Shown: positions 4,457-57,780, counted from the first letter of the stretch. The stretch: 64,000 bases of DNA from Gracilinanus agilis (GCF_016433145.1 NC_058132.1:438041873-438105872); one strand, 5' to 3'. Notes: generated by a model from the letters alone, not told the origin. Program-made: numbers and translations.

Positions 4457-5574
4457 TAAAAATAAAGGCAATAGGTGGTGTAGTGAAGGTGATGAACAAT
4501 TGAGGAAATTGGGATGTGCTTCTCAGAGGTTATACTTGAATTAAGCTTTTAAAGTGTATGAAGGGTTCCAAGAGGTAGAAGGGATGAGGGAAAAGAGTAT
4601 TATAAGCTTGGGGACTGACCATGGAAAAAACACAAGGAAATTACATTCAAGGAACAGCCAAATATGCCAGTTTGGCTAGCTCATGGAATCAACAAGCATT
4701 TAAGCAAAGGTGGCTATCTCCTAGGCATTCTGCTAAGAGCTATTCTAGTAAGAGAATACAGAATGGAAAAAGGATCTGAAAAGTAAGTGAGAGGGAGTTG
4801 GTGCATACATTGTGACACAGTGGAGAGAGCAGTGAACTTGGAGTGCTGAGTTTTGAAGCCCCAGGACCAGAATGTGGATCCTGACTCTACAGTTTCTTGC
4901 TTAATTTTTTCTAGACCTCATTTTATTTACCTGTAAAATAAAAGAGTTTAAACATATGACATCTAAGGTACCTTTTTACTCTAGATATATGATTCTATAA
5001 TCTTTAAGATTTCTGGCAGCCCGTCAGAAATCCAGGACAGTAGCAAAGAATAACAATTAAAAAATACTGGTCAAATATATTATTGTATAGCAGAAAGAAC
5101 ATTTCGTTCTGATGCAGAAGTATGTGGATTCAAATCTCAGCTCAGCTGCAAGTACCCTGGATGACCTTCAGAAATCCCACCAAACCCTGTTTCCTCATTT
5201 GTAAAAAGAGTAATTTAGATTACATGATCTCTCAAGTCCAGGCCAGAAAAAAGAAAATAAAGTCAGGTTTAAGTTAAAATTTCATAAAATTAAATAAGCA
5301 TTTCCATTGGCTAATAATGTACTTCTTTTTTGAAAAAACAAAACAAAACAAAACAATGTATTTACTTGTTAGATTAATAATGTACTTCAGAAGAATATCT
5401 TACCTCTTGGCCTTAAATAGCTATGAATCATGTCTATGATATTGGCCCTTCAGATTCTTAAGGTATAATTTAGAGTAAAGTATTCATTAATTTATTCAAC
5501 AAAAATTCACTGGACAAGGACTGTATACAAAGTGTTATGTTGACTTTTTTTTTTCATAACAACCTTATGAGATA

Positions 5575-5829: not shown

Positions 5830-8712
5830 TTCTGTGGTGAGCTTTTTAGAGAATTTTTTTAAAGATGTATATCTGTACATGTGTCGTGTGTGTGTGTATA
5901 TACATATATGTTTGTATATATGTGTAAATACACATATATTTATTTATAATCTATTGATATTCTGGAAGCTATAAACACTTAAAAGTACAGGGGCTATATA
6001 TATGTATGTATGTGAGCGTCCCTTAGAGCTATTAGGTATTTAATAATTAGAACTTTTAGTATATATTTTTTGACTATGGCTTAAATCTAAGGGAAAGAAA
6101 GCTTGATTTTAAAAATGTTAAATACTGTTATAGTGTAAAAGATTATAAATGGCATAATATTTGGCATTATATTTGGCATAATATTTGGCATTTTCTATCA
6201 GAAAAATATAGGGAAATTCTAGTCAAATTTTTCTCTCTAGATATAGGCAAATTATTTATCACATAATTAATATATCTATTGAAATATTAACTGCAGAAAG
6301 AATTACAACTGCATCATTTCATTTCTGATATTTCTGTGGAAATAGAGAAATGAATACTATGAAAACATAAAATTCATTTTGCATTTATGAAATCAATTTA
6401 ATATAATGTCAACAGATTATAAAAAGTAGTTGTTGCCCTGATGTCTGCATAGATGAAAATAGATCCAATATTTTTGTAGAGTTGGAAAAATAGTTTAAAT
6501 TTATTTCATAGTTTAAGAAACTCAAAATAGAACAAAATCACGAAACTTAAAGGTAATATAAATATCAGCTTGTCATATAATTGCTAGGAAATAAAAATTG
6601 GTGGAGAAAATGAGACAAAAATTCATTTGATAAATGGAACATCAACATTTAGGGGAAATATACAATGAACTACCTATATTAAACAGCCAAATTAATGACT
6701 TAAAAGCAGCTTAAATAAATTGCATGCTGTATTGGATTTTGTAACAGTGGGAAACTTATAATAATCCTGGTCCAAAATGTGTTTAGTTATTATTTTTAGT
6801 AATGTCTTTTAATTCCACAGAAAATAAATAGTTCCTTTTTATTTTCTCCCTCCAATATTCTTTGAGAATATATTTTATCTCTCTCCTTCTTTGAATCCCC
6901 TCTGCTCCCTCTTTCCCTCCTTTTCTTTCATATAAGAAGTTAGAAAATGAAAATCTTTACTGTTTCGTAGTTGCATACAAGACATTATATCCAAATGGAC
7001 CCATTCATTATATAATGAGTTTTCCGTTTCCATGTTGTACTTAACTTAAGGGAAGATTAAAAATAGCAACTAAAATTACTCATATGTGAAAGCACAAAGT
7101 AGATTTTTAAATAGTATTTTTCTATAATAGTTCATCTGTTTTTCATTGAGTAGCCATCACATATCTACCTCAGAATACTTCTAATAAACTTTCAAATATA
7201 CCCTCGGGGGGAAAAAACCAAGGTTTTAGAAACATGATGGATAATTATTTTTCTTTTTTATTTCCTTTGGAAGGTAGAGCAAAGATTTTTAATAGGTCTT
7301 CATAAATGTAAAAAAATATTCCCTCTAAAGTTGAAAACTGAAAAGTACTTTTCTTTGTGTCTTAGTAATAAGTTACTCCATTGAAGCTATCAAAATAAGA
7401 GTTCTGAAATGACCTCTCTGCTCTCCTAGAAATATGAATAATTTCTGTAATTATCTTAAATTTTGAGCCTTGCATTTTATATTGACTTATCTGATCTTTA
7501 AAATAGAAGACCACACACATTACAAATCAATATAATTGCATTTTATCTAGGGTATTTTTTCCTCTTGGAATTTCAAAATGAATAAAGAATTGGAGAACAA
7601 AATAATGAATAAGAAGGAATGTCAGTAAAATTATATTTCTATGAGATTTGAAAATAGAGAATGAAAATATAGTTTCTGAAATACTGAAAATCATAAAATA
7701 TAAGAATTGAATATTTAAAATATCTATATAGAGAATAAATTATTGGAGGATTTTGAGCTAAAATGATACAAAGAGATTAAATATGGAATTATTTATAAGG
7801 ATGCCAATATTAACATCATATAATGAGGAAAGGAAGAATGTGATATTTGGTCAAATAATTATGAAAAAATTAGAAGTAAACGAGAGAACACACACATATG
7901 CATATATAGATGTGAATCAAGTCAGTATGAAATAGAAGAATGAATGAGATATATTTTCATTGTCAAAAAATGTACTTATTAAGTTTGGGCTTTGGTGAGG
8001 AAAAAGTTGAGCTGAAACAAAATAGAAGCTTGAATTACATGTCTAAAATATAATGAATAAAAGGAGAAAGTTGAAATGAAAAAAAAAACAAAATAAATTG
8101 ACATTACTTTTAAAATACTAATATTGCCTAATACCATATACAAGAACCTATAATAAAATGATTAACATATTTGGCCTAGTTTTAAAGTTCATATATTTTA
8201 ACATCAACCTACTGTGGAATCATTCTTCATTACTTTCAAAACAAAAATAGAAAATCCAATGAGTCTCAACAAATTAGTTACCCATAAAAGTTCAGAATAT
8301 TTATCTTGTCTTTATGTTTCCTAAATAGGAAATTAATTAAAAGTTATATGTGTGTGTGTAAAGAACTTGTAAATAGACCACTAGACCACTATCAAGATTC
8401 AGGGAGGAAGCACCTCCTCATCACTTTTATCCTGAATTCTGTAGGAAATTTGGAAAGAGACATGGATAGAATGTTGGCCTCAAGGTCATGAGTATATGTT
8501 CAAATCATGACTTTTGTATCATATATTCCTTGACAAATTAGTTAATTCTCCATGGCCACAGGGAACTTTTTATAAGACTAACAATTATGGATGAGTTGTT
8601 AATCTGTATTAGTTGTAATATCATGAAGTCATTGGTACAGACTTATCTAAACATGTAAGGCCTTAGAGGTCAACTAGTTAAATCCTTTTCTTAACAAAGA
8701 AACTGAGAGCAC

Positions 8713-23329: not shown

Positions 23330-23420
23330 ATACACCATCGGTTAAGATTATACCTTCTACTCCATTTCCACAAGAAGGACAGCCATTAGTTTTGACTTGT
23401 GAATCCAAAGGAAAACCCTT
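23330..23420 (+). CDS. CADM2: CADM2 internal coding exon, 91 nt, N-half of Ig-like domain 3 (..TPSVKIIPSTPFPQEGQPLVLTCESKGKPL)
   Basis: Polypyrimidine tract and ctccag acceptor; GTAAGT donor at 23421; peptide matches CADM2 as recalled; phase 1 start and phase 2 end join in frame with 55442. Confidence 0.93.
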
Positions 23421-29679: not shown

Positions 29680-29875
29680 GATGAATTAAAGAAAGTAGAT
29701 AGTGGGTTGGGCTTGGAATCAGGAGGACCTATGTTGGAATTCTTTTTTAGATCCTTACTAGCTGTGTGACCCTGGGAAAGTCCATTAACCACTTTAACCT
29801 CAGTTTTCTTATTTGTTAAATGAATATAATAAAAGCTCCTATATCACGTGGCTGTTATGAAGGTTAAATAGATAG
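29680..29875 (+). mobile_element. MIR SINE
   Basis: ggcttggaatcaggaggacc...tagctgtgtgaccctggg...cctcagttttcttatttgttaaatg. Confidence 0.75.
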
Positions 29876-37717: not shown

Positions 37718-38237
37718 ATCACTTCCTCTTCTTAAAGCAAATCAATGATATGTATTAATCACTTTCATCATGCAAACATTGTTCTAGAGATGTAGAAGAT
37801 ACAAACTGAAAAGTAAGGTAGTTCCTCCTATCAAGGAACTTACATTCTAAAAGAAGAGAACACAGTTGCAAATCTAAAAAAAAAAGTCTCCTTAAGGTAC
37901 AGCTGCAAAGAGGATGTAATTGCATTTTCTTTCATTTAATTTGCAATAATGAAATCATTTTAGTTTATGATCTGAACCATCTGACAGTGTCAAGGATGTT
38001 GTAGCTGTAGTACTGGCAGGATCAGTTTTCAAAGAGGTTGCTTTCTAGGATGATGGTTACAGGTAGTGGGCTACAAATATCACTATTACCATGTCCCTTG
38101 GGCTCATCATTCTGAGCTGTCTCAGGATCTGATGGTTGATAGCTTAAGGTCATAGTGGTTTTTTTATTTGCCTGGCACATTCTGCTTCCTATTTCTTCCA
38201 CAGTGTATCTTGTTACTTCAGCTAGACAGACTTGCCA

Positions 38238-38745
38238 TGATGTCATGATATATGTGGTTTACAGGAAGAACTAGCACTTCTAGTGTGTGGGATTGCTAAA
38301 TCCTTTTCAAGGCTGCTTATTCACCTTACTTGTGGTTCCAAGATGTTATAGCATGTGTGGCAGCTATACCCAGGTAAAACAATCTCCTCAGACTGACTAA
38401 ACTAGGTTTAGGAAATTAACAGGTCTCAAATCCATCTTAAGGGGATGACTTTTCCAAGCATGTGAATACTTCCTCCAGTGAATGGGTAGATAAGAACAAT
38501 ATGTTTCAAAAGCCATGAAGATGACTGAAGCAAGTACTGTGAATTGCCTAGAGCTTTGTCAAGACATAGAAGATGCCAATGTCATCTACAGCTCTCCAGA
38601 TGTCACCAGTCATCCTAAGTTTTGTTTTACCTTTGAATTATAGTGACTAGAAGAGAGGATGAGGTTGATAACTTTGTGCTGTTCTGCCTCACTTAAATCC
38701 AATGCATGTGCAAGTCAACATATGAAGGGCAAACAACAGCAAGAT
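38238..38745. mobile_element. RTE-related marsupial repeat (WALLSI4-like)
   Basis: ccaggtaaaacaatctcctcagactgactaaactagg...ccaagcatgtgaatactt...gccatgaagatgactgaagcaag...gttctgcctcacttaaatccaat. Confidence 0.6.
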
Positions 38746-39920
38746 TGGCTTGCCTGCCCTATGTATGACATTTGGTGTGAGAAGCTAGTCACTTCTCCAC
38801 AGGAGTTGGTTCTCTGGATGGTGACTGTGAGGATTGAACAAGAAGCAAGACTAGTGAGCTGGAGGTTAGAGATAGAATTGGTGCTGTCCCTCCCAGGATT
38901 CCTATATATCTGCTTGTTGGTGACAATTAGCAGCAGTTGTTGCTGGAGGTGATGAAAAAAGTGCATACCTCTCTAGAAATAATTTCTCCCTCAGTGATGG
39001 AAATAAGGGATATGCTGCAAGTTGCTCTGAAGGTTTGCTTTATTCAGGGCTCTTTGTCTCAGAGTCCTATGCTGTCTTCAATAGGATCCCAGAAAGAATC
39101 ATTAATTTGGCTAAAATAAAGTTTCATTATTAATTTTTGGTTGTCTGAAAATTTCATTTTAACCATTTCATTCTGGATGATAGTAGGTAAATGAGGTGTT
39201 ACTTATCAAATAATTTTGGATTGTATTTTATAGGTGAAACATGACAGACAAAAGTACTCTGATAATTGTCAAATTATATTTGATGTAAATTATAATATTC
39301 TCATTGCTTTGTTTTATAATAAGGTGAGTTAATCCTTTCAAAGAGCAATTGAAGTGACTTGGCAAAGCTGATATGAAATTAAACTAAGACTTTTTCTCCC
39401 TAAGTTTGAGATTCTTTATCTTTATTATATAAGATTGACAGTTGTCTAAAGTAGAAATTGAGTAAAATAACTTAAGACCATATTGCTACCTGTGACATTC
39501 TCAAAAAGCATCCCAGAAGCTCGGTTTGTTCATGTTATTAATAGCTGAGACTCACATTACTGGAAATAAGGAATTTTAGAAAGAGAAATAAGAAGTGAAT
39601 TATAGCTTATAGAATTTTTGTAAATGTGGATCTACACATGAACTAATGACTACATGTGAGATTTTTATGTTTACTAAAGGTGTTTTGATCTCTCAAGTAA
39701 AAATTTAATAATAAATCTTTTATAGTCACCATAGAAATGCTAATTATAGATAAGGCAAAGGTAATTGTTTCTGCTTTTAACACAGAGTCCTTGAGCTTGA
39801 AAGTAAACATTTTTATCAGACTTGCATGTTTTTCCCTTAGTACTAAGATCTGCCAGTGTTTCTGGATTGCTGCAATCTGATCTTTTCTTAGAATAATCTT
39901 TTATTTGTTGTGAGGCAGAG

Positions 39921-39990
39921 TGGTGTGTATGTGTGTGTGTGTGTCTGTGTGTGTGTCTGTGTGTGTGTCTGTGTGTGTGTCTGTGTGTTC
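39921..39990. repeat. (TG)n microsatellite with periodic GTCT interruptions
   Basis: gtgtgtgtgtct unit repeated. Confidence 0.9.
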
Positions 39991-40800
39991 AGATCCAATA
40001 AAATCATCAATTAATACCACTCTTATCAGTAAAAACGTGGAAAAGAATTTCACGGAAACCATTAAGAATGCAGTTATATTCATGCTTTCTAAAGAGCTCT
40101 TACTTATTGAAAATGGGAGCATTTCCTGTTTCAAATACAACTGCTATACTTTGTAATAAAAAGGGTCTAAAAAAATCAGTCAAGTAGAGTATCTCTGGAA
40201 TAATCAAAGTTAGAAGTGAAGTGCTACATTTTCCTAGTTGCTATTGAGGTTTTAACTCTAATGCTTATGTCATCTCCTAGTGCTATCATTTCATCTGTAT
40301 ATAGTCCTTAATATAATGAGGCTCCTCCCACTTGAAAGTGTGTGTTATTTCAATAACTGATTTTAAGAATTAGATGAGCAGATAAATTCAGAATCACAGT
40401 TTCAACTTTCAGTCTAATGGAACAAGTAGGATTGAATTAGCCACTCTACATGGACTCCATTGATTGCTAATTCTAAGAAGCCTATAACCCAGCTAGATTA
40501 AAGTACAAATGATGATACTCAAATATGGTTTTGTGCTTATCTAAAGTAACCAAATTGCTTGAAGATGGCTGTAAGAATCATTGGGATTTTCAAACCACAA
40601 ACGGAAAAATAAATTCATTGATTTTCAGGGGGAATGAATTACATAGGGATAGGAAATCTCATAATACATCCTGAGTGGTCAGGAAATTAATATAACATCT
40701 AATGGTTTTAAGTATGAAACAGTAGATTGAAAAGAGTATATAATATGATCCAATGGAAAACTAAAGCACATGTACACTTTAAAATAAATTAGAACTAGTA

Positions 40801-40985
40801 GGGGGCAGCTGGGTAGCTCAGTGGATTGAGAACCAGGCCTAGAGACAGGAGGTCCTAGGTTCAAATCTGGCCTCAGACACTTCCCAACTGTGTGACCCTG
40901 GGTAAGTCACTTGACCCGCCCTTGCCCACCCTTACCACTCTTCTGTGTATTGGCTCCAAGACGGAAGGTAAGGGTTTAAAGAAAA
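40801..40985 (+). mobile_element. SINE1_Mdo-like young SINE with rearranged 3' hairpin
   Basis: 15-bp TSD aaattagaactagta at 40786-40800 and 40986-41000. Confidence 0.93.
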
Positions 40986-41449
40986 AAATTAGAACTAGTA
41001 ATGTCAACATTCAATGAACTGAAGATTTCTGCTGAACAGGACCAGCTACTCATCTCGCAGCTTCCATCCCATATCGAGTGAGTTCTCTAGCCAGATCTGG
41101 TGGTCACCCCCGAGACATTTCTCTGGGCACTTGTCAAGGGATTTCCACTCCTCTTGGCTTCCATGTTAGTTCCCATATATTCTTCAGTGTCCAAAAATAG
41201 TGAGAGAAATTAATACCCCCTTATATTGCCATCTCCTTGTATTCACCTTATCTAAATGATTCTGAACTTCATTTAACAAAGTATAAATACCAGTTCTCAT
41301 CCCCAACTGCCTACTTCCCTACTCCTTTCCCCTTCAGACATATATCACCAATGTCCCACCCCTTCTTAAAATCTCTTATTCCTTTTCCATGCCTTCCATT
41401 TTCTGGCACTAAGATCTGTTTCCCTTTTGTTGACACTGATTCTCTCACT

Positions 41450-42870
41450 ACCACTTCCTACCCTTTCCTGCACTGGCTATACTTTATTCCATATCTTTAA
41501 ATAACTGATCAATTTGTTCTCCACTGAAATTTCCATCATTCAGCAATTTATCTTCCTCTAGGGTCACATCATCCAAATTTATCAATCAGTTCAGATCATG
41601 ATAGTTATCATCTACTGATTCCATGGACATTTTCTTTTCTCACTGAATGCAGTGCCTGTCTCACAGGCTTTCTCTCCAACCAAAATTTTGACCTCTTGCC
41701 AGGAGACTTCAATTTACATACTGATGGGATTTTTTTAATGCCTTAACATCCCAATTCATTTATCTACCCAATTTTTGTGAGGAATTCTATTAAGTAGTTA
41801 GGTAACACAGGTGGCCTGGAGTCAGAAAGACCTGAGTTCAAATATAGCCTCAGCTCTTACTAGCTATATGGCCCTACGGAAATCAATTAACCTCTGTTTG
41901 CATAACTTTTCTCAATTGTAAAATGAGAATAATAATTGTACTATAGTATAATCATAATTATAACAGCATTATTATAATTATAAAACTCAGAGCACAATGC
42001 CTGGCACATAGGAAGTTCTAAATAAATGTTAGTTATTATTGTTATCATTCCTCCATTACTCCACCTCAGCTATCTGTTCAGAATCTTGATCTTGCCATCA
42101 TCCACAAGAATTTCACTTCCATATTCAGGAGCTCTGATATTTCTTTGTTTGATCATGATTGTTACTCCACCTTTTCCTATTGCTTTAAGATGCCTAACCC
42201 TATTTACACGGACTTCAATTCCATTCAACCATCATTTCTTTCCAGGCCTTCCCTCACCTCTTCCCTGTTTATGCTCATTCTTTCCATATCTTAATTCCTC
42301 AGTGAATCATTTATACTCTAAACCACAGCCTACCTTCAGATCCTTTGCACCCTTGGCCTATTGCTAAACATTCCTTACCAAACCCTGACCTGGCATTACT
42401 CCGTTATCTACCTCCTTTGCTACTGTTCGCCTACAACTACAGAGAACTGGATAAAGCCATGACACCAAGCTACAAATTTTTGCTCTCTCTTCCAAACTGG
42501 GCCCTTACTGTAGCAGGCAATCACCCTCTTCTTGAATAAATTCCCTGTCCTATTCTCCATAGTGCATATTCTGGTCACCACTTTTCAGATTCTCTTATCT
42601 ACTGACTTCTTTCCTGCTGCCTATAAACATGCTCATCTTCCCCTTTCTGTCCTTTAAAAAACAAAAAAAAATCTCATTTTTTTCCTACCATTGCCACTAC
42701 CAAATATTTTAGATTTCTTTATTCCTTTGTGATTAAACTCTTTGAAAAACCACCTAGATTAGGTGCTTCCATTTTGTTTTCTCCATTTCCTCTTTTTAAT
42801 TAACGTTTTGTAACCTTTTGTATGCTGATTTATGACCTCATCATAACTGAAACTTCTCTCCACAGACTTA
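41450..42870 (+). mobile_element. L2 LINE internal fragment (endonuclease region), split by a MIR at ~41790-42045
   Basis: ggagacttcaatttacatactgat = GDFNLHTD; cttgatcttgccatc = LDLAI; C/T-rich L2 text. Confidence 0.65.
41790..42045 (+). mobile_element. MIR SINE
   Basis: ggcctggagtcagaaagacctgagttcaaat...ttgtaaaatgagaataata...agcacaatgcctggcacatagg. Confidence 0.8.
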
Positions 42871-44784
42871 AAATACTGAGGTTTTAAAAATCAAATTTGC
42901 ATTTTGTCAATACAAACTGGCTGGAGTTTCAAGACATATATTTAACTGAAGAGTTGTTTACTAGAAAAGAAAAAGTGAATATTATTGGATCCAGATTATT
43001 TGACCAGATTATTACAAACCTGTAAGCAAGTAACCCAGGCTACTAAGGAAGAAAACTACTGACATTTTATTTACTTTTAAATTCTCTCTTGGCTTCAGTC
43101 ATTTTTGTGTTTCAGATTTTAAAACAAAGTTCTGACTATGAGGAAAAGTGATTTGGAATAGGGTCATACCTACACGAAGAGAAAAGGAAGGATCTCTATC
43201 CCCCTCTACCATCCCCAACATGTTGATACGAATTCAGCCAGATAAATAAATATACAGTAATAGAAGTTTTGTTTTTATCCCAGTAATCAAATGTGTATGG
43301 AGATATCCCAATATATAAATCAAATCAATATTATCATCACTTAGATTCTATGACATATTGTGCTAAGTGTATATTTTCAAAATAAAGCTTATAGATATTA
43401 GAGAAAAATGATTCTTCAATTCAGATACTACCTAGGGATTTCTTTTTAAAATATAATGAGTCAAATGAAAATTAATCACATTTAGGTGAGCAGTAAAAGA
43501 AGTTAGATGATGGTTTTATGTATCAATGGCTGTCAGTACACGTCATGCACAAGAAATGGAGGCTGTTTAAAATATTATATTTACTCACATACTTGTTCCC
43601 TTTCACATTTGACAAGAAAATCAATAATAAAAAAATAATTATCTAACTCCCCAAATAATCAATCCCCTACAACCTTTTTCCCCCTCTTGCTTTGAAGCAA
43701 CATCCATGAATGCCAACAGAGGCTCCTTAGAGGCTTTAAGAACATATATCAGCTTCCTTCACAGCTTTAGGAAATACTTTTTTCCACCACAAAGTTTTAT
43801 GTGCTTTGTCTTTGTCAGTTCAATCACAAAAGCAGCAAGCATTATCCTGCTGCTAGCCACTGCTGAGATTAAGGAAATAGTGAATGAGTCAATACTCACT
43901 CTCTCCACTTGCCTCTCTCCCTCTCCTTTCTTATCTCCATCTCCCTTTCAGTTCTCCTGAGCTGATATTTGTTTGAGGGTACAGGATACTTGCAGCCCTT
44001 TGGGGAAACTGCCTGCTGACAGAGCAGTCTGGACCAGCTTCTTCTGAACCTAAGACAGTTTTAAAAAATGAAAGAACATAGAGAGGAAAGGAGATGGGGA
44101 ATTTTTTTTTGAAAATCATCTTTTAATCATGTTGTAAAATTATTTTGCATTGAATTCATGTCCCTTATTTTCTCTTGCAAATACAGCAATGTACAGTAAT
44201 AGCTTTACATATAATTTCCATTGCATTTTATCTGTAATTTATACAAACATACACAGGAAAATGGATTGCTTTATTATTTGTACTTTGATCCTCAATGTAT
44301 AATACAATGTGGTGTCACAGAGTAAGTACTTAATGAATATTTGATTGATTTATTAATTGATGCAAAAATGCACATACGCATATGATACTTACTCTAACCA
44401 TTCATAGCAAATATATGCATGTTCAACATATCATATTGCTAGTCGCAATTACACACGAAGTGCACATTATCCAATTGCAATCAGTAAAGTCTGGCTGCAA
44501 CCACTTCTTTTTATGTGCTTGGCCCTTTGCCTAAGAGGCCTAGTACTCCTGCCATGACCTTCTGAGTTCAGCAATCGCTCAAATTCCCTTTCAGAAGTCT
44601 CAGAACTATTGTGTAGCCTCAATCCCAAGCTTGTAGTTAGCTCAAATTCACTGTTTCTGGCTTTAGGCTCTATGAAAGCTCACAATCACAAAATGTCTTT
44701 AAAACTGGAATGTTTGGCAAGAAAGAGGCTTCCTTTTTGCATCCTGAGGCCTTATGACTTATATTGTCTATCTAGAATTTACAA

Positions 44785-44985
44785 AAACAACAGTAGCTAA
44801 TATTTATATAGCCTGTGCTAGGAGACATTATGCTAAGCTATTCATATTATTATCTCGCTTGATCCTCACAACAACCCTGGGACAGGTGTTATTATTACTC
44901 CCTTTTTATAGATGAAGAAACTGAGGCAAACAGAAATTAAGTGACTTGGCCAGGGTTACACAGCTGATAAGTCTCTCAAAGGTCT
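44785..44985 (-). mobile_element. MIR SINE
   Basis: tgatcctcacaacaaccctggg...gaaactgaggcaaacagaaattaagtgacttggccagggttacacagc. Confidence 0.8.
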
Positions 44986-45299
44986 CTGAGTTTTCTCTGT
45001 TCCCTAGATGACTACTCAACTGAAATACTAGGCAAGGTAGGGAAAGCCTTTGTGTTTAGCCCCATTGCTCTCTAACAGTTAAATTAAACGGTCATTTTTC
45101 CAGGAACTGAGACAGACTCAGTTGATCTTTCTGACTTTCTAGAAGGTTACTGGTGACTTTTTTTTTCATCTTGGTAATCATCATTTGAGCTTACATTGAG
45201 TTCTGATGTTCTCTCTGCCATTAGTCAAAGGGTTCTTCTCAAAATCTACTTGGCTGACTCTCCATTATTCTTTTTCCTTTTTCTCCTGAGGGTGTCTAA

Positions 45300-48280
45300 C
45301 TAACTTCCCAATAGGCAATAGATAGATGCAATGTATTGTCTTTGTAGGGTCCTGACTGTTCTCTGTGGCTCTCTTGTAAACTGGCAGGATGCCCAGTCTT
45401 TCAGCAACTTGATAAGGAATGGCTTTTAGTCAATCTGCTATTTCTTGTGTTCCTGCACACCAAGATTTCTTCACAGAACTCTATCACTATGCTGAAGATC
45501 TTGTCAAGGAACTCAAGCACCATACTGTTACTTATTCTATCAGAGCATCTCTGACCTGTAGCTGCTGGGCAACAACTCTCTTTTTTCTGATCTTTTAGCC
45601 AAGAGAAAAACTGGTTGTGGGTCTCTAGGTCTTGTTCATCTTCTGAACCTCTAAAGCATAAATTGATAGGTAAAGATGGCTCTCACTGGAACACCAGAGG
45701 ATACAGCATAAAGCCTGTGACTCCATTTGGGCATAAATGCAGTAAGAAAGTTCTTTTCTTCAAATATGCCAGAATTTTCAATAGTGTGCCACTAAAGCAT
45801 TCAAACAGTAATTTCTCTAAGGGTGGTAACCTTTGAATCTGGACTTCTGTATTTCTGACAAAGCCAAAACCTCCTTAAATACCTCCAAATCTATACCTTG
45901 GTCAAAGTGGATCCTGACAAGGAAGCCATTTACAAAGAAGTACCTTTCTTTAGCAGCTGAAAAGGTTTATGCTTCCTGATTGGGGAAGCTTGTGCATACT
46001 GAAATTGCAAGTTTTAAGAAGGAGTTGCTTATTTAAAAAAAACTGTATATGAGAGTCCCTGCATTTGCCAATGTTTATATTCTCCAAGTTTGCTGCAGGA
46101 TTTAGTAGTATTTTCCTGGGAACAGGTTGGGCACAAGTCCATACTTCAATTTAAATGTCATTTGTTTAAAGTGCTGGAACTAGAGTCAAGAAGACCTGAA
46201 TTCAAATCCAGCCTCAGATACTGTGTAACCATGAGTAATTCATTTAGCCTATTTGCCTGAGTTTCCTCATCTGTAAGATGGGCATAATAACAGCACCTAC
46301 CTCCTAGGGTTGTGAGGATTAAATGTGATGACAATTATAAAGCACTTAGCACAATCATAGCGTCTGGCATATAATGCTGCATAAAATATTAGCTTCTTCT
46401 ATAGTTATTATATGCTGCAATTTGGGGTCAGCAAAATCTATTCATTAGTGTCTCATATTTTATTTCTTGACCCGAGTCCAAAATCATCCTATAGTGCTGA
46501 CAGTGAAATATTTTAGGGAGAATGCACTGCTTCTTGATATGACTTTGTTCAGCTAAAAACAGATGCAGTACTGCACTAAATTGCTCCAACTCCTGCCAAT
46601 TGTCTTCACAGTAAGATAACTTCTAGAGAACAAAGTTTAAGTCTTCAAGAGATCTCTCACTTCATGACTTATATCACTTCTTGCACATATTATTCATGAA
46701 ATTATTCCTGCCACAAGTCATCCAAGTACAATGGGGGAACTGGCCAATGAGCCCAGTCTCTGAAATTATACAGAGTTCCATCAATGGACTTCTCCACATG
46801 GTAGAGCCATGAAGACATAAAATGGAAATGCCTTGGAGAAATTTTGGAGCATGTGGTAAACGTTCTCTAATTGATTCCATCTGGCCAACCACATAGTAAA
46901 TAGAGGAGTTTTTATTTGCTACAGAGATATTCAAAAGGAGATTAAATCAATAAAAACATTACCCCAGACCCTAGGCATATCTCTAAATCTCTGAGGAGGT
47001 GCAGCTAGACTTTCTATAAGAGAATGAGGCCAGAGTACATACTCACTTCAAAAGGGTAACTAAGGAAAAGGGAATTAGGTAAATATTAAAAAAGTTCACT
47101 TCCTCTGATGGCACAAAAGGTAAATAGAAATTCCAAATTTCAGCTACATTTCCATTTAATTGTCTACAGGTAGTATTATATTTTTGGACTCATGGCTGAT
47201 GAGTCAGAGGATTTGCATACAAAGTATTCTTAATTGACTGATATTCACTGAATCCGTAGTCATAGTTTGCTACTCATTTCTGGTAAGTAGTATATGATTT
47301 GGCATTCATCAGAAACAGTGTGCTGTTTTCTGTCTATATGTTAAAATTTTTGATCTTCTTAATGCAAGTCCACTTCAAAGTCAAGAACTTATCTTCTGGC
47401 TTCAGATCTGTTAGTATCTACTACTATACGTAAACTCAATACTAAAACTGCTTACTACCCAGTAAATACTCCAAAGTATCTTGGATTTCAGTATGTTATA
47501 CTGTTCCACCTCAATTCTTTTATTCATTATTTGGACAGGCTGGATATTTCAATTATTTTTTAGTACCAAGAAAAAAGGGTAAAGCATATGGCCTTCTAGA
47601 CTCTGTGGTGATGCCATTGAATAATAGTTCTTTTAAATGATTTTGGAAGTTTTCCATTTATCTTCTGAAATATCTTTTGAAAGGGTCAGAAATTGTTGAG
47701 TCCAACTTTTTGCATTCCCCAATCATAGCCCACAACTCATACTCATTCAGTGAGAACATACCAGTCTTTGCACTAAGTTTCATCCTCAAATGATCTTTCT
47801 ATTCCTCAGACACTACAGAGTCACAGAAATGGGAATTTTTTTAGATCCACTGTTTAGGGCAGTCATCATTCCTGAAATGTTCTCTGACACCATTAACTTC
47901 GATTTTCTCATGGCTTCTGAACAATAAATATGGATTTTCGGTGTTTTGACATATTGAGTCCCAGTTTGCTACTTTGAGTTTTTTTATTTATACTTTGAAC
48001 AGATTTGATGGAGTTGACCCAATCAACAACTGACACAACAGAGTTGTTAAACAGAACCACAGTGTCTGTCATTCTGCTGAGATTAAGGAACTTCATTAGG
48101 GAACTTCAAAAACTATGTATCCCAGATATTGGTAGTTTTTCCTATGATGCCCAAGAGTATAGAGTTAGGAAAACATGATGGTAATAAGCACATTGGCTGA
48201 AACTAGGACATATATACTTATCATAGTGTAAAATCCGAATAATATATTTTCTATGACCAGTCTTTTCTGGGTGTGGTGAC
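45300..48280 (-). mobile_element. Ancient Ty3/Gypsy LTR-retrotransposon pol fossil (PR, RT N-terminus, RNase H, integrase); RT core deleted
   Basis: Colinear degenerate motifs read by hand on the minus strand: YLGYI (48114-48128, protease region); FCDSVVSEE*KDHLRMKLS..FSLNE; HLKELLFNGITTESRRPYA (47584-47639); IQDTLEYLLGSKQF; KFLTLKW (47367-47390); NAK..ANYD; L*DDFG.LG; RFC*PQIA; YAQASP; YFFVNGFLVRIHFDQG (45895-45942); KSR..YHP; LPINLCF; DRVL*RNLG; IPYQV..LPVYK; KTIH..LLPIG (45307-45342). Confidence 0.88.
46160..46410 (+). mobile_element. MIR SINE inserted into the Gypsy integrase N-terminal region
   Basis: gtgctggaactagagtcaagaagacctgaattcaaatccagcctcagatac...cctcatctgtaagatggg...aagcacttagcac. 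Confidence 0.85.
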
Positions 48281-49083
48281 ATTTCTGCTAGACTTGTTCC
48301 TTACTGAGTGTGGGGATTCCTCTTTTGGACCTTTAGTTTATTTGGCTTGAGTTTATGACTATATCCTTCCCTGAAAAGAGGGATGAATAATTTTTTAGTC
48401 AAAATCAACACACTGAGATAACCAAAGCTTGTCCTCAGGCTAAGATTAGATCCATCTTTTTGAAAATCAAAACCTACTAAACTACTACTCTAGAGGTCAC
48501 CTCCATCTTCTTAGTCCTTTAAATTGGAAATCTGGGATTACTCACTGTCTCTCATCCTTCCATAATCCAATCTATTGCTGAAATCTGTCAAGTTAACCTT
48601 TGCAATGTCTCTCAAATATGCCATTTTCTTTCCACTGACACTGCCACCTCTCTAGTTCAGCCCCTCAACACTTCATACCTGTAACCAACTGGTGGGTCTG
48701 TCTAACTCAGGTTAGACACTCCACTCCAATCTCTCCTCTAATCAGCCATTAAAGTGATTTTTCCTAAAGTTCTCTGGCATTCAGAGTTTTTTGTTACCCA
48801 ACCCTTTCCTACCTTTTCATTTTACCTTACTCCCCAACATGAACTCTTTAATCCAGTGGCACTGGCCTCCTGACTATTCTAAAAAAGGACAGTCTCTGTC
48901 TTGGCTCCAGGAATTTTTTCTGGCTGTCCTCATACCTGGAATACTCTCTTTCCTCTGTTTCAACTGCTGGCTACTTTGGCTTTCTTTAAGTCTCCAATAA
49001 AATTTCACCTTTTAAAGGGAACTTTCCCTCAGCTCCTCTTAATTCCAGGGCCTCCCTCTGTTAATTATTTCCTACTTATCTTG

Positions 49084-49103
49084 TATACAGTTTGCTCTGT
49101 GTG

Positions 49104-49152
<49 letters not shown>
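49084..49152. repeat. (TG)n microsatellite
   Basis: About 33 near-perfect TG units. Confidence 0.95.
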
Positions 49153-49154
<2 letters not shown>

Positions 49155-49167
49155 TTATGGGGAAACA

Positions 49168-49917
49168 CTTGTGGGAAAATTAAATATTACTGGGTTTAGA
49201 GAAAGAGGAGAAGGAGGACTGACTAGACAAGGATAACAGACTGGACTAACAAACTAGGAAAACACAAACCCCTCCAAAGAACAAAAAATGGGAGATTATG
49301 GATTGGCAGTTGAGACCGACTGCCACCATTGATCCACCTAGCCTGGGAGTCTGTGAAACTATCAAGTGAGTAGACTGGGACCAAAGATTTATAAAGACAG
49401 GTTTAATTAGATAAACTTTGGGTTTGAAGGAAGGGAAAGGGATGTCTATTCTAACAACCTATGGGCAAGTCTCTGGGTTAGGGAAGGAACTTATCTACAC
49501 TAAGCTAAAGGCAATATCAAGGCACAGCTGGACTTCAGGGAAGGAAGCGGGATCCTCACTGCCGAGTCCTGTCCAAATCCAGCGATGATACAGCTCTCCC
49601 ATGTCCTCAGCCAGTAATCCTTGAATGGGTAAGGTTAGGGAGTTAAAACAGCCTGAGATGACCAGCAGCCCAGGTCAGGTTTGACATTCTCAACCTAACT
49701 TCCCACAGGCAGATTATTATTTCTTCAGGATACCAGGATACAAACTCCACTTTGTCTGAGGTCTCCCACTGAGTCAGTTGGTCAGCAGCAACTTGCACTC
49801 AGCCAACATGGAGTCCATCCCAGGAGAGAAAGCCACTTCCTGCTTCCCCATTCCATTTAGAATTCTCCAGCCTTGCTTGATAAGCCTCCTAATAGTACCT
49901 AATCTTAAACATTTACA
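49168..49917 (-). mobile_element. Probable solo LTR (~750 bp)
   Basis: TG...CA ends (tgtggg...tttaca); ATTAAA on minus near 49405; GC-richer with residual CpGs; interrupts an L2. Confidence 0.5.
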
Positions 49918-50399
49918 CCCTACTTTATTAATTTATCTATAATATATATACATATATGCATATATATATATATATTTGCATGTTATCTTCCCCATTATTT
50001 TGTAAACTCCTTGAGTCAGGGGCTATCTTTTGCCTCTTTTTGTATCAATAGCACTTATTACAGCAACTAGCAGGTAATAGATGCTATCTCCCTGCTATTC
50101 AAACTCCCATTTCCTAAATTTTGAGACAGAGAACAACTTCTCACACATTTATATCCTAATTGTTACCTAGTTACTATTAGGGAAATTCTTGTGGAAGGAA
50201 AGAACAAAACACATGCTTATCCCTTTCCCAGTCATCTCATGGTCATATTCAGTCACCTTTCAAAGGCCCACTCTGTGGTGGGACTGGTAAAAAAGGTCCC
50301 TGTCTTTCTTCTTTTTTATTTTGGATTGAACAGAGTGAATTACACAGAATGAATAATACATGATACGCAAAAATATGCATATGCTATCACAGTATTTTT

Positions 50400-50790
50400 C
50401 TCCCCAAATCTACCCATCTTACAAGCTCCTATATTACTGTTTAGGGTACCACCATTCTTCCAGTCACTGAAGTTCAGAAAATTAGTGTTGTCATTGACTT
50501 CTCATTTTCTTTCACCCCTTATATCCAGTCAGTTGCACTTTTTTCCTTCTCTATCCACACCTCTTCCATCTGACCCCTTCCCTTTCCACTCATCCACCAT
50601 TCTAGAGAAGGTTATCCTCACATCTTGCCTGGACTATTAGAAATAGACTTCAAATTGGTCTCAAATCTTTTCTCTATATTTCACATAGCTGCTAAAATGA
50701 TTTTCCTAAAGCAAAAATATCACTCTCTCCTTCTCAGTAAAATCTAGCATTTCTCTATGTACTCCAAGATCAAATAAATTCTCTACTTTA
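50400..50790 (+). mobile_element. L2 fragment
   Basis: ttagggtaccaccattcttccagtcactg...cttgcctggactatt...catagctgctaaaatgattttcctaaagc. Confidence 0.65.
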
Positions 50791-51329
50791 TCTTATTCTT
50801 TTTTAAATATCATTTTTGTATAAGTTTTATAGGACTAGAGTATCTTTCATACTCTATGAAGTATGAATAAAATACCTCTACTAATGCAGGTTGTCACCTT
50901 CTCTGCAAATTACTGTTATTAGCCATTTAAAATATTGAACATATAAGTTGCTTGCCTAGAGTCATACAGCTAATATGTAGCTGAAGAAAGACTTGTAGTT
51001 AAATTTTCTGGCCTCATAGGCCAATCCTCTGTGGTGCTATGTGCCATGCTGCTTTCTGTAAGTTTCATAATGTATGTAACATATACAACTATTATTATTA
51101 TAATATGTTCATTGAATTTATAACAGTAAATATGCATATATTAGAGAACATATTTAATTTTAACTGATAAGGATTTATAGTCAAAAAGTTTAGAGACCAC
51201 ATGTTTAAAACATAGGAGAATGAAAATCATATATGAAGCCCTAAGTAATAAATAGAATAAAGAAATTCATGGTCTAAGTCAACTAACATTCAATCTAGCT
51301 TCTACCAAAGGCTTAAATAATATAAAGAT

Positions 51330-51330
<1 letters not shown>

Positions 51331-51374
<44 letters not shown>

Positions 51375-51392
51375 ATGTGTGTATGTGTGTGA
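51331..51392. repeat. (TG)n microsatellite
   Basis: Direct reading. Confidence 0.95.
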
Positions 51393-54074
51393 GTTAATGT
51401 GTATGCATCAAAAACTTCCAAAAAATGCAATATCAGGTAGAATGAGAGAGAAAATACATTTTTAATAATGGTAGTGGTGGTGGTAGTAGTGGTAGGGAAA
51501 TTAGTTTTTTTTCCTTTGGAGTATTCTACTTTTTCAGTTATATGGGCTTATAATGAGTTTTCTGGAATAACTGTGCTAATTTATTAACTTTAGAATCTTA
51601 TTAATTTTCATCTAATACCTACCTAATAACTTGTTCATTTTCTACTTATTCCTGGTGCCTGGCTGCTATTCTGTCTTAAGCCTTCTCAAAAAAGAAGCTA
51701 CTCTTTAAATGATAGGTTTTGGCCATATTAACAGCAGGGAAGATTGTTATTCATTTGCAAGAAGGAACTTGATCATTCTTGGGTTCCAATTAGAGAATGC
51801 CTTAGGGCCCTCTAGGGCTAAACACAAATCGTATCACAACCTGGTAGATCATTTCACATTTCTGTACAAAAAAATTGAGGCTTAAGCATTTTAAGCACTA
51901 GGTTGAAATACATGTACTTTATTCTTTATGTTTAAACTATAACCCCAATTCCAATCTAATTGCATTTCCCAGGGTTAATAACCTTTGTTACCTTGAAGAT
52001 TTTGTCATAAAGAGAACAATGAAAAGTTCTGCTCTGGTTAGCTTGAACATTGATTTTTACTATGGAATTCCTGTGATTATTTTCTTCAGTTCTATGCTAT
52101 TTTTACCCAAGAGAAAAGAGGCACATGCATGGACAATAAGCACATGTTTACACATGTACACACACATGCACACTTTTTTAAACAGGAAGAGAATGGACTT
52201 TTACAAAAATTACATATGGAAAGTCAACCAGAATCTTCATTTTAGATGCATTATGATATAACGGGGAAAGCAACAGTACAGGTCTGCATTTAAGTGTCAG
52301 CTCTGTTACTATGTATTGGGCAAACTATGCAACTTTTCTGAGCTTCAGTCTCCTTATCAATAAAAATAGGAGGAAATTATTTTCTATCCCTCCACTACTG
52401 ATGTAGCTCATTAATAACTACTCCCTTCACCTGCGTAAGATGGCAAACTATGCCCACTTTCTCATATGTTATAACTAGTCTCCATGTCTCCAAAGTCTCC
52501 ATGGAGTACCTTACCAAATGTGATGGATGCCTTCCTCTGGGGTTCTTTTAATATTTCATGAATAGCAGTGCAGCATTCAGACTTTAAATCTGTTATTCTT
52601 CACTTTTTCTACATGACTGACCCACCAGCTCTTCTGGTCATGCTTGTCCTTAGTGATAGCCTGCCTCACCATTTTTCATGTGCAAATCATTGATGGAAGT
52701 CTGCTGCAGCCCACTTAACAGCCACTATGAAATTAAGGTTGTTTTAATCAATCAACAAGCTTTTATAAAGTGACTACCAAGTGTCAGTCACTGTGCTAGG
52801 AGCTGAAGATATAGATACCAAAATCTAATGCGATCATACAAAAAATGTGTTAAAGTTGGAAAACACTCAATATCCAACTTAAACTAAACTGTATATTGGT
52901 TGCTATAGATGCAAGAAATATTGGGAGGTGGCTTTAGTTTGTGAAGAACCCAAGAAATCAATTGTGGTTTGATGCTGTCTTATAATAATTCTGATTATAT
53001 CTATTTGTCTATATACGAATACATATATAGACATATTCAAATTCTTTTCAAATTCAAATAATTTTTCAAATGTATTTATGGCAGCATATATGGGCATATG
53101 CATATATTTAAATAATGTTCTTGTACTAAATGATCCCTAAGGTCTTTTCTAGTTTCAGACATTTTTGTAGAACTATGATTTTTAAGGATTTTTACTCTAT
53201 GAACTGTTCAGTGTTGCAGTCTTTAAGTTTTAAAATGTAAATGGCAATTATTAAATAAGGGATATGAGATTGGCTTAGAAGTATTAATGGTTTGAGACTC
53301 TGACTCTAAATAAAATGAATATGAGTTATTTGCACAATGGGATTATCTTAAAGAGCTTTCCCCAAACTTTGCTTTCTGTACAATGAATGCCTTCATTTAG
53401 GATTTTGCCATATGTCTATTTATTCAGACACTGCTTAGTAATAATGATAAAAATGTGCATACTTTGTTCCATTTTCTCCCATTTCCTTTTCCACATACTT
53501 CCTTTCCCCTAGTTTTACTCTAACTTATTTAATCACATTTTCTAATATCTAATCATGTTTCCAGCCCTCCATTTGGCTCTAATTCCTACTTTCATTTGGT
53601 TTCTCAGTCTACAATCTTGTCAGAAAAACATTTTTCTTTAACTTTGAGAAAGGCATTCTATGTAATATATGTGATTGATGATAATATATATCATATAAAT
53701 ACATGTTTATACAAACACTCAATAGAATATTGTGTAATAGGTAATATATGAATATATGTATTTATTCATGTATATTCTTTATTAATAAGTTGTATACACT
53801 TACAAATATATCCCTTTGTCCCATGAAGGTATTCATGTATATACAAATGTGTATATATACACATTAAGCCTAATTAAGCCCTCCATAAGTTTTTGTAATA
53901 TATAAATTTGAAACTTTCTTACTAAATAACAAGTCATGTATAAAGATAACCTCCAAGGAGCATTATATTCTACAGGACATAGAATAATAACAGGGCTTCT
54001 CTTTGCAACAAATTCATTACCTTATGACAGTTTAAACTTGGTAAAGTAGAATTAGATAAACATTGATTTTTGCT

Positions 54075-54990
54075 TTATTTCTTCTAGTTAATTAATTAAT
54101 CCAAGTCAACTAGCATTTACTAAATGCTTACTTCATGCCAGGTATTTTGCTAAATGCTAGGAATATAAAGCGATGTAAAATAGTCTTTGCCTTCCAGCTA
54201 CTCACATTTTAATAGGAGAGATAAAATGCAAACAGCCATGTATGTATAATATAAAAATAATGAATGGAAGGCTATCTCAGAAGGAAGGCTCTAGCATTGA
54301 GGGGGACATGGAAAGGCTTATTGAAGAAGGTAGAATTTTATCTGAGACCTGAAGTAAGCCAGGAAAGTGAAACAGAACAAACTAGGAAAGCAACTTTTAT
54401 AGGTATATTGAAAACCCAGTGAAAAGGTTGGAAGGGGTACATATTTGAGGAATAGTAAGGCCAGAATTTTTAGATCATAGTGTACATGGAAGAGGGGAAA
54501 GTGTAAGAAGACTGAGAAGATAGGAAGTGCAAGGCTGCAAGGGGTTTGAAAAACCCATTTTATATTTGATCCTGGAGGTAATTGAGAGCCATTGTAGTTG
54601 ATGGAATAATGGGATGATAGGGTCAGATTTATCTTTTAGGAAGATAACTTTGGTAGCTGAATAGGAGGAGATGAAGTTGGGAGAAACTTGAGGAAAGGAG
54701 ATAAAGCAGAAGGTCATTGTATTCCAATAATGGAATAGTGAGAACCTTCACCAGAATGTTGATTGTGACTAAGGACAAAAGGCAGCATCTATGTAGTAAA
54801 GTGAGAAATAATAAGATGACAATAGATCACCTATATGGGATTCATTAGTTAGGAGTTGGAAATGACACTTTGGTTTTGAGCAAAAGAGTCTGGGAGCATG
54901 ACTTGACAGTATGAGAGAATTTTGGAAAATGAGAGGATTTGGGGAGAAATGTAATAAACTATGTTTTGGACATGCTTAGTTTAATATGAA
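54075..54990 (-). mobile_element. L2 3' region
   Basis: caactagcatttactaaatgcttacttcatgccaggtattttgctaaatgctagg...; gggtcagatttatcttttaggaagataactttggtagctg. Confidence 0.7.
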
Positions 54991-55259
54991 TAGAGAGCAT
55001 ACAGTTCCAGATTCATTTTTATCTTTAATAATTCTCTGAACCACTAGCAACCTCACAAATGGGAGTCATGTATGATAGGTTTTTTATACCCTTTATCAAC
55101 TAGTGTTGCCTTAAAGAAAGTCAGTTTTCAGGGGATTCAGAGTGACTCCAAAAGAAGTTTAGACTGGTAAGCAAAAAACAAAAACAACTAGTATTGGTTA
55201 TGCAAAATCTATTATCTATGTGCAAAAGTGTATGTGTATGTAATTAAAACTAATTTTTT

Positions 55260-55375
55260 ATAACCCAGTGAAATTACTTGTCAGCTCTGGGAGAGGGGAG
55301 GAAAGATGGAAGGGAGAGAACATGAATCATGTAACCATGGAAAAATATTCTAAATCAATCAATTAATTTTTAAAA
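55260..55375 (+). mobile_element. Extreme 3' end of an L1
   Basis: ccagtgaaattacttg...gggagagaacatgaatcatgtaaccatggaaaaatattctaaa matches the tails of the L1s at 12400-12480 and 12936-13060. Confidence 0.75.
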
Positions 55376-55441
55376 ATACTTTAAAAACACCCTAATTTTT
55401 CTTCATTCTAACATATCTGTATACGTGTTTATATTCAATAG

Positions 55442-55620
55442 GCCAGAACCAGTTTTGTGGACAAAGGATGGTGGAGAATTACCAGATCCAGACCGAATGG
55501 TTGTGAGTGGTAGGGAGCTAAATATTATTTTCCTAAACAAAACGGATAATGGTACATATCGATGTGAAGCAACAAACACTATTGGCCAAAGCAGTGCAGA
55601 ATATGTCCTGATTGTACATG
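55442..55620 (+). CDS. CADM2: CADM2 internal coding exon, 179 nt, C-half of Ig-like domain 3 (PEPVLWTKDGGELPDPDRMVVSGRELNIIFLNKTDNGTYRCEATNTIGQSSAEYVLIVH)
   Basis: caatag acceptor; GTGAGT donor at 55621; Ig W and D-x-G-x-Y-x-C motifs; phase 2 start completes the TT|G Leu codon from the previous exon. Confidence 0.95.
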
Positions 55621-57780
55621 GTGAGTACCCTTTTAGAATTATTATGAAGATGTGGACTTATAAATTATGTATATTTTATTTAAAGTCCAACTTAATTGTT
55701 ATCCAAATTAAAAGAAAAAATCAAAGAAGCAAGAATTTTTTCAGTAAAGCATTCTTTCAAAGAAATAGTTTGTTTTAATTTCATTAGTTGGATTAATGAG
55801 TCACTTTGCTCTATATCTTTGTATTCTAAATATAAGAGCATATAGTTCTAGTTAAGCATCATGAAAATTGTATTTCCAGCGGATTCTGTGTGGCCATTTT
55901 TTCATGTTTATTCTTTTTTATGTAAGTGGTTTCCAGAGGAATTATATTATTGATGCAGTTATTGATGCAGTGATTACAGAGGCATACATAATCAATAAGA
56001 AATGCTTTAATTTCTCATTAATGTTGGGTTAGAAACTCTTCCAAATGTGAATTGAAAATCTATTCTCCCCGCTCTGTCTCAGGCAATATTGCAGGAAATG
56101 TAGGAGCTTTATAACCCCCCAGGCAAATGCTAAAGTGAAGAGATCCTTTTATCTTTCTTACATCTTACCCAGAAACCAGTAACAGTGTGGTGACATTCTC
56201 AGGGATTGTCCTCTACATCATTGTACCTATAAAGATACACTGAATCCCCAAAATGTTCAGAAATATTTTGTCCATCCTACCTTCACCTTCTGGGGAATTA
56301 CATTGCATGTGGGTGAGGTTTTTTGTTTTTTTCCCTTGGTGGTGTATTTTAGTGAAGAGAATTCTGAACTTATCAGTCCACAAGGTTCAAATTCTATTGT
56401 ATTCACCTAAGAACAAGTCACTTTACCTGCCTGGGACTCAATTTCCTCAGCAAAAATGAAGGCTTTTTCTATCTATAACATTCTATGATCTTGTGATTCT
56501 ATGACTTACCACTGAGTGTAGGTCTTCTACAAGGCAGGGCTCATTTTGAATTAAAAGATTCTTTCAAAAATCATAATTTTTACTTGATATGGACAGGTTC
56601 TTTACATATTGGTTTTGTTCCAGTAAGCATCAGAACTTCCAGAATGTGCAAATCCTCATTTCTTTGACCCTCTTGTATTTTTATTTTTTAATTCCATCTA
56701 ATAGGACCAGGTCTATATGGTCTAAACTCCCAACTTTTCACCTCCACTAAAAGAATGGTATCAGTACACCATTTCAACGTCTCAAGAACAAAACTAATCT
56801 ATGGAATGGGGAACTAGAATACTGGCATCAGTAGAGCACAATGAGTTAGTTCTACCCATAACTTTTAAATGTCCCCTTTACTTAATAGCTAGTCACTAAG
56901 GTTTTAGGGGCATGTTATGTAGCATGTCACAGTGCTGTGAAAGCAATATGCTACAGAAATATAGAGTTAAAAGGGAACTGACAGGAATACAATATAGCTT
57001 TGTGAAAAGTATGCCATCTATATTTTTTTAGTAAGTAATTCAAGTGGAGAAAATGTATATGTTTTTCTAGTGTTTGCAAGCTGGCCAGCAGCATGATTCC
57101 CTAAATAGCCAAGTTACCTTTAGGTAGTTTGGCAGTTGACATATTTCTAATAAATACTTCTCTAAGCACTTTGTATGTAGTCATTTTTGGCTTTGCTTTT
57201 TGATCTACAATTCATCAAAAGCACCCCGTGGATTAATGTTATTCATGCTGCTAGATCAATGCTGTGAAGTTCAACAGTAGTTTACCTAGGATTATTGACA
57301 CAAGTAATGAGAGGCTCATTGAAATACTAAGACTATATTACGTGGTGTTTTTTTTTAAGACTTCATTTAGGTTCATTACAAAATAAAGTTTTCCCCTTTG
57401 CACACTGGGTATAATGTTTCATTAGACACTAGTTGTATAAATATGAAACACTATTCTTTCCTGTTAAAGGTTTAGCCATTTCAAACCCCCTCTAAATGCT
57501 GAAATTTGAGTGGCATTTTAATCTATAATGAATGCTGTATGCATTTTGGAATGGAGTGATAAGTGATCATTTGTGAGAACTTTACCCTTTTTTATCTTTT
57601 ACACCAAGGTTGCTTTTGCATTAGCTGTGATCATTTAATATACCTCCAGCATAGAGGGTTATTTCATGAGCTGATACCCTGTGTCTTTTACTTTCACACA
57701 GTTGCCCAGGCCCTATCGATCCTTAACTTGATGGAGGTCTGTACACTTCCCTATAATACTATCTGTTATCAAGAGCTATT

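Follow-up and report, generated by a model that had tools for sequence, protein, structure and literature searches.

A decayed Ty3/Gypsy pol remnant of the PNMA-gag lineage in a Gracilinanus agilis intron and its family of broken copies

A 64,000-nucleotide stretch of Gracilinanus agilis DNA (hereafter the window) contains, at 48152-45283 of its minus strand, a decayed Ty3/Gypsy pol that belongs to the PNMA-gag lineage. The genome has dozens of such copies, the window copy among them, all similarly broken and falling into at least two subfamilies. It is very probably a dead, neutrally decaying Ty3/Gypsy copy lying antisense in a 32-kb intron (23421-55441) and, as far as tested, it is unconstrained and has no present function. 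Taken alone the locus amounts to junk DNA, but its family preserves in fossil form the lineage behind the mammalian PNMA capsid genes. The intron is bounded on the plus strand by two Ig-domain exons, one upstream at 23330..23420 (AG/GT boundaries) and one downstream at 55442..55620 (GT-AG), which join in frame. The intron had been assigned to CADM2 in an earlier note made from the sequence alone. A plus-strand Ig-domain gene does flank the element, but the searches themselves returned only an Ig I-set domain and a match to CADM4; we take the host gene to be CADM2, in agreement with the human protein.

The evidence for the element starts from a chain of pol motifs that the earlier note had read across stops and frameshifts. 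All 22 strings of this chain lie on the minus strand in the order described, spread over three frames from 48128 to 45321. A minus-strand frame (47840-47211, stops written as X) was searched index-free among 1.84 billion proteins and matched 25 of them at E ≤ 1e-3 (best E 2.3e-14), which puts the motif chain beyond chance. Pfam scanning of 14 of these 25 proteins found RVT_1 in 14/14 and PNMA gag in 6/14, and the sources named among the 10 clusters of matches were sea turtles (best match), teleosts and Xenopus. One full-length turtle relative, P0052, served as the reference: its Pfam map comprises a PNMA gag, a weak protease, RT (residues 726-886), RNase H (978-1107), a zinc finger (1265-1320) and an integrase core (1334-1431), and in PDB it matches Ty3 Gag-Pol best (E 1e-95). 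The frameshift-aware protein comparison proposed in the earlier note gave a colinear alignment to P0052 with a score of 728, where three null strands (plus, reversed and complement-only) reached 70, 74 and 79; identity by segment, across stops and frameshifts, was 29-47%. When 45101-48400 was scored, two turtle references reached 722 and 734 and seven other Gypsy references (some from fish and frog) 214-480, with reversed DNA at 41-73. Seven long pol frames of the host, presumed but not typed as ERVs, scored 40-58, 7/7 of them like reversed DNA.

The Ty3/Gypsy call, the domain order and the domain labels are thus upheld by colinearity with the turtle polyprotein, by Pfam and by the score tests. 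The segments follow the Pfam-mapped reference in the order PR-RT-RH-IN, integrase last, and the copy groups with Gypsy pol over retroviral pol by score, while a tree composed of rows other than ERVs nests it among Gypsy references. The earlier note had named best matches to ERV or cellular proteins as grounds for refutation; such an origin is excluded, with the presumed host ERV pols at null level. Raw frames gave little: Pfam found no relevant family in six of them with X at stops (one chance holin, E 0.47), PDB returned chance CLIC4-type matches or none for two, a word-index protein search with the RT frame scored 0/198 candidates, and Rfam had 0 matches.

Segment by segment, with residues numbered on P0052 and pol segments on the minus strand, the copy opens with the C-terminal half of the protease region and a linker (47903..48152; residues 420-507; 46% over 81, 4 frameshifts and 2 stops). 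The protease reading of the earlier note is sustained for this half only: the catalytic half is at null level, the active site upstream of the aligned part scoring 37 versus a null maximum of 46 in 30 draws. At the following junction (47853..47903) residues 508-626 are missing, a gap of 120 residues over 52 nt. Beyond it lie the pre-RT linker and the N-terminal ~50 residues of the RT domain (47428..47853; residues 627-775; 44% over 142), a region that also has a profile match (E 6.8e-14). The frameshift-aware alignment then places a second junction at 47390..47428, where about 278 residues (776-1053) are lost, comprising the RT YxDD catalytic core, the connection and the first half of RNase H. 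This junction was not seen in any other mapped locus, and 11/40 mapped rows cover the YxDD columns in decayed form; the deletion is therefore private to the window copy, and the missing YxDD core is a loss after insertion, not a family difference. The proposed PR-RT-RH-IN chain accordingly stands in its order but had missed this heavy deletion, by which most of RT is gone.

The copy resumes with the C-terminal half of RNase H and the start of the RH-IN tether (47055..47390; residues 1054-1193), in which residues 1054-1140 (47390-47162) align at 38% over 77 and residues 1159-1193 weakly, at 26% over 35. A short, unrelated interspersed repeat lies in the tether on the plus strand (46799..46938) and is matched by 12 other loci over this stretch only (73-90%). 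This repeat is old and of no assigned class; past it, homology to a family copy picks up again at 46739. The end of the tether and the first half of the integrase zinc-binding domain follow at 46416..46739, up to residue 1302; here residues 1236-1302 (46601-46416) give 29% over 62, which is weak alone, and the DNA matches locus L104 at 60% over 365 nt. Exactly between residues 1302 and 1303 the zinc finger is split by a plus-strand SINE (46162..46416), presumably of MIR/CORE type, which supplies most of the matches in a DNA search of the animal's own genome (69-85%). The second half of the zinc-binding domain (46064..46162; residues 1303-1335) aligns at 42% over 33, and the integrase core and C-terminal region (45283..46001; residues 1366-1624) at 47% over 241 with 4 frameshifts and 7 stops, adding four profile matches (E 2e-6 to 2e-11).

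DNA homology to other copies runs 3' beyond the limits first given to the fossil, 45300-48280, to ~44970 and, weakly, to 44555. More specifically, the 3' tail of the internal region (44990..45282, minus strand) is an unbroken 64% DNA match to L094 with shorter matches to L095, L098 and L099, and a possible further piece beyond a second SINE (44555..44727, minus strand) matches one locus, L097, at 59% over 174 nt (E 4.6e-4). No gag was found in the window copy. A 13-residue gag-like match at 48931, which sits within another repeat, was dismissed as noise. An old interspersed repeat at 48540-49100, just upstream of the element and 62-74% identical to several unrelated loci, could have overwritten or concealed the 5' part. 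Neither an LTR nor a primer site nor a target duplication could be recognised, whether in the flanks (18 downstream, 39 upstream) or by genome search, and the direct and inverted repeats in 38000-56000 include no LTR pair around the element. A candidate for its own LTR at 49200-49930 was rejected as far younger, at 88-95% to 40 scored matches (of 3007 candidates); it is a young solo-LTR-like repeat of a separate family, unrelated to the Gypsy fossil. The repeat at 44260-44360, which we take to be an L2 tail, is likewise a separate short repeat and not part of the element.

The genome search for further copies suggested in the earlier note yielded dozens of related broken copies. An own-genome DNA search with the integrase end (45050-46150) found 15 other loci at 66-84%, and P0052 as query found at least 12 loci at 37-61% with stops inside, a floor set by a stricter first look. 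A PNMA model gave 60 matches genome-wide, 1 of them in a long open frame; searches with the H2C2 and rve families hit mostly presumed ERVs and yielded no copy number. The window copy carries 5.2 stops or frameshifts per 100 codons. Of the 34 mapped rows that reach 100 codons, 32 have a rate of 2.6-7.0; the two clean rows are the PNMA-MS1 gene and its recent copy. PNMA-type capsid and this pol occur together at L106, L107, L200, L173, L174+L208 and L178+L209, which links the capsid to the pol at the level of the family.

The jump over residues 508-626 is the same in 9 other loci and, being common to other copies, is a family trait. This PR-RT stretch of ~120 residues is filled in 45/45 references and absent in 10 marsupial loci, with L196 ambiguous (14 rows listed, comprising 8 well-scored segments, L196 and 5 noise-level rows that were dropped; L173 and L209 were added), and its loss is derived. 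In P0052 residues 508-626 are weakly dUTPase-like, below the Pfam cut-off; at loose thresholds the stretch scores weakly as dUTPase in 4/4 turtle-type proteins and 0/7 others. Two further loci have peculiarities of their own. L108 holds two pre-RT matches in opposite orientations (4764-4919 and 7123-7289), which suggests a local inverted duplication. L105 (L022) is an isolated 114-nt piece, 85% identical to window 47537-47650 (the RT start) and far closer than any other copy; its surroundings contain nothing else of the element, and it may stem from a local duplication or from chance low decay.

The phylogeny that the earlier note had called for places the fossils within the Gypsy references. 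In a turtle-anchored pol tree 25 fossils form one clade (0.98), sister to the turtle elements (1.0), and a non-turtle-anchored tree of 18 fossils returns the same clade in the same position; in the latter alignment the window copy shares 51% identity with turtle and 39% with the anchor. An IQ-TREE C20 analysis (quick search, 30/54 rows) gives SH-aLRT values of 99 for the fossils and 100 for fossils plus turtles. The trees hold no crocodilian, squamate, monotreme or eutherian rows, so the turtle sister position is valid among the found references. The turtle PNMA-gag Ty3/Gypsy elements (Caretta P0052, Natator P0001, Malaclemys P0050) share the colinear PR-RT-RH-IN order with the fossils, at the segment identities given above despite decay, and are their sister in both pol and gag trees; they differ in having long open frames (a cluster of 417 sequences) and in keeping residues 508-626, whereas the mapped marsupial retrotransposon copies are all broken. 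Gypsy12_DR-like fish and frog elements share lineage and domain order and supply most of the database matches, but are ~8-12 points below turtle in identity to the fossils and fall outside the turtle-plus-fossil clade. The description as "fish/amphibian type" was only roughly apt: the PNMA-gag lineage does occur in fish and frogs too, yet among the references a turtle element comes closest. In a word-limited search with another copy's RT, no named turtle protein appeared among the 120 matches listed, the best of which reached 51-57%, under the 61% to turtle. We take the Barthez elements to be of the same lineage as the Gypsy12_DR-like elements. Barthez is listed among the reptile Metaviridae clades in the available text of PMC3670739.

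Gag fossils connect the family to a living gene. Locus L155 is an intact PNMA-MS1 of 458 aa from Met, with a CCHC motif, antisense in a laminin-N gene; the length of opossum PNMA-MS1 from Met is likewise given as 458 residues in the accessible part of PMC3789554. The same locus (L204:3754-5151; G000:C1:540.6 Mb) has RRM-like, capsid and CCHC parts, with laminin-N exons 22-60 kb away. A PNMA-MS1 gene in this genome supports the marsupial origin of the DNA. The gag tree divides the fossils into two groups and joins PNMA-MS1 to 6 dead gag copies (99). A topology that holds 18 fossils together without PNMA-MS1 is rejected (AU p 0.0125; 32/45 rows, with 12 references and L157 left out and the grouping named after the earlier tree had been seen). 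PNMA-MS1 nests among dead gag copies of the family. Two loci of its group have pol downstream, which marks them as copies of the retrotransposon itself and not as retrocopies of PNMA-MS1. Overlaps of 18-117 codons did not assign the window copy to either gag group; among the usable ones, the shortest two favour the other subfamily over that of PNMA-MS1. PNMA-MS1, a domesticated marsupial gag (PMC3789554), is an intact single gene without pol, whereas the window copy is pol only. L157 (G000:C2:327414020-327414340) is a partial copy of PNMA-MS1, ~10% diverged evenly over codon positions, with a 127-aa frame, and may be a recent pseudogene.

Near-invariant pol residues are kept at 55% overall (2192/3986) and in the window copy at 84/159. 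By codon position, the p-distance of the window copy to its own group is nearly even (0.37/0.38/0.41); to the second group it is 0.41/0.36/0.50, and members of the second group differ among themselves by 0.36 overall. An excess at third positions between the groups suggests that the subfamilies diverged under selection while active. JC/2 per lineage comes to ~0.27 for the window copy and to 0.31 within the group it belongs to, while the younger second group has 0.24; these distances lean upward because misalignment is included. For the opossum lineage, substitutions per site amount to ~0.13 from the marsupial crown onward and to 0.34 from the therian split. Set beside these rates, the distances would place the family's activity on the marsupial stem and its older group close to the therian split, though a therian age is also plausible; the estimate uses approximate branch lengths and noisy codon alignments.

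The ancestor of such an element copied itself via RNA, using a gag capsid, a reverse transcriptase/RNase H and an integrase. In the history that we favour, the lineage would have been inherited vertically from the amniote ancestor and would then have lost the ~120-residue PR-RT stretch. Several subfamilies may have spread at some 80-160 million years before present, either near the time when marsupials and placentals separated or later, and one gag copy would have become PNMA-MS1 before the lineage died out. The window copy would meanwhile have lost its RT core and gained the SINE and the other short repeat.

How this family relates to those already catalogued is less settled. It could well be MamGyp-int (or MamGypsy2-I), a family that would have been active in the therian ancestor and under whose name this locus would already be masked, a reading that we place a little below even chance. 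MamGyp-int is a Repbase Gypsy internal sequence in human and MamGypLTRs are listed too (PMC5753468, available text), PNMA2 has been annotated as the gag of MamGyp-int, hence of the same PNMA lineage (PMC9934673, in part), the deep decay (JC/2 0.27 and 0.31) may reach the therian split, and Gypsy already stands in the marsupial repeat tables to which we had partial access. Counting against it are the younger second group (pairs down to p 0.29), whose mostly third-position difference from the first implies continued activity, and the eutherian LAMA3 intron, from which PNMA-MS1 is absent in the part of PMC3789554 available; human PNMA2 capsid also gives 134 bits to turtle versus 106 to PNMA-MS1, a weak comparison at unequal lengths. 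MamGyp-int and MamGypsy2-I, eutherian Gypsy fossils, are by those papers' descriptions mammalian fossils of the PNMA lineage. A marsupial sister family, rather than the catalogued MamGyp, is about as plausible, again short of even. The fuller form of this idea is more tentative: an uncatalogued family distinct from eutherian MamGyp and marked by the PR-RT loss, whose several subfamilies stayed active on the marsupial stem once the placentals had split off, and one of which gave rise directly to PNMA-MS1. If so, PNMA would have been domesticated separately in marsupials, from a live element, and the last active Metaviridae in marsupials would be dated. That outcome would support PMC3789554, which argues, in the text accessible, for insertion after the therian split, against the single therian PNMA progenitor from dead remains argued for in the available text of PMC3670739. 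These two sources differ over a single or a separate origin of marsupial and placental PNMA, and over whether the donor was still active; with dozens of gag and pol fossils, among which PNMA-MS1 nests, orthology and trees offer a way to test the question.

A horizontal transfer into early marsupials or therians, with a turtle-like reptile as donor, would account for the short stems (0.10-0.14 on the fossil side, 0.07-0.12 on the turtle side, with other references at least 0.5 away) and for loose linkers in which decayed copies match turtle (0.36-0.43) as closely as intact proteins of fish and frog (0.33-0.46). We nevertheless consider it improbable. The turtle element is slow-evolving: the elements of two turtle families are 0.06-0.08 apart, and if those families split about 100 Myr ago, the turtle stem fits an amniote-age split and no transfer is needed. 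A turtle Ty3 has already been named the closest non-PNMA relative of mammalian PNMA genes (PMC10945824), and alligator, turtle and anole reportedly have active elements of PNMA type (PMC11011659). That the window copy is kept as a regulatory element of the host gene is very unlikely: exapted Gypsy fossils lie near vertebrate developmental genes (PMC9004415, partial text), a precedent with nothing specific to this locus, and the copy has decayed like the others, in near-invariant residues as in the rate of stops and frameshifts, and is broken by two insertions. Least credible of all, to the point of being negligible, is an ERV remnant, a pseudogene of a domesticated pol (GIN1, NYNRIN, PEG10) or a chance run of motifs; ERV-like pols abound in the genome, but those presumed to be such score at null, 14/14 scanned top matches are RT polyproteins (the named ones from turtle, fish and frog), and the copies are dispersed and include loci with gag plus pol.

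Marsupial Gypsy remnants are already published at class level, and the under-annotated family suggested in the earlier note is unproven. Metaviridae in mammals are described as rare fragmented remains only (PMC3670739, available text); antechinus has 4842 Gypsy matches, or 0.04% (PMC9631953), and one Didelphis species 0.015-0.02% (PMC8056902), while TBLASTN with Gypsy12_DR gag gave 20 matches in tammar and 14 in opossum, mostly remnants (PMC3789554), each as given in the accessible parts. Our literature search, which covered few subscription papers and neither Repbase nor Dfam, found marsupial gag remnants and class-level counts but no account of pol fossils or a tree; the available portions of PMC9004415, PMC4350176, PMC4408412 and PMC9447858 are background and give no account of marsupial pol fossils.

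Three minor matches complete the picture. Two in the window, on the minus strand, are probably composition or chance: 710-1174 weakly matches a low-complexity polyprotein tail (E 1.7e-5), and 29727-29843 weakly matches turtle P0001 (E 0.007). Elsewhere in the genome, an integrase H2C2 match at G000:C2:551399720-551399890 lies in a 989-aa open frame and scores apart from the ERV-like mass; our guess is that it is possibly a domesticated pol gene such as NYNRIN.
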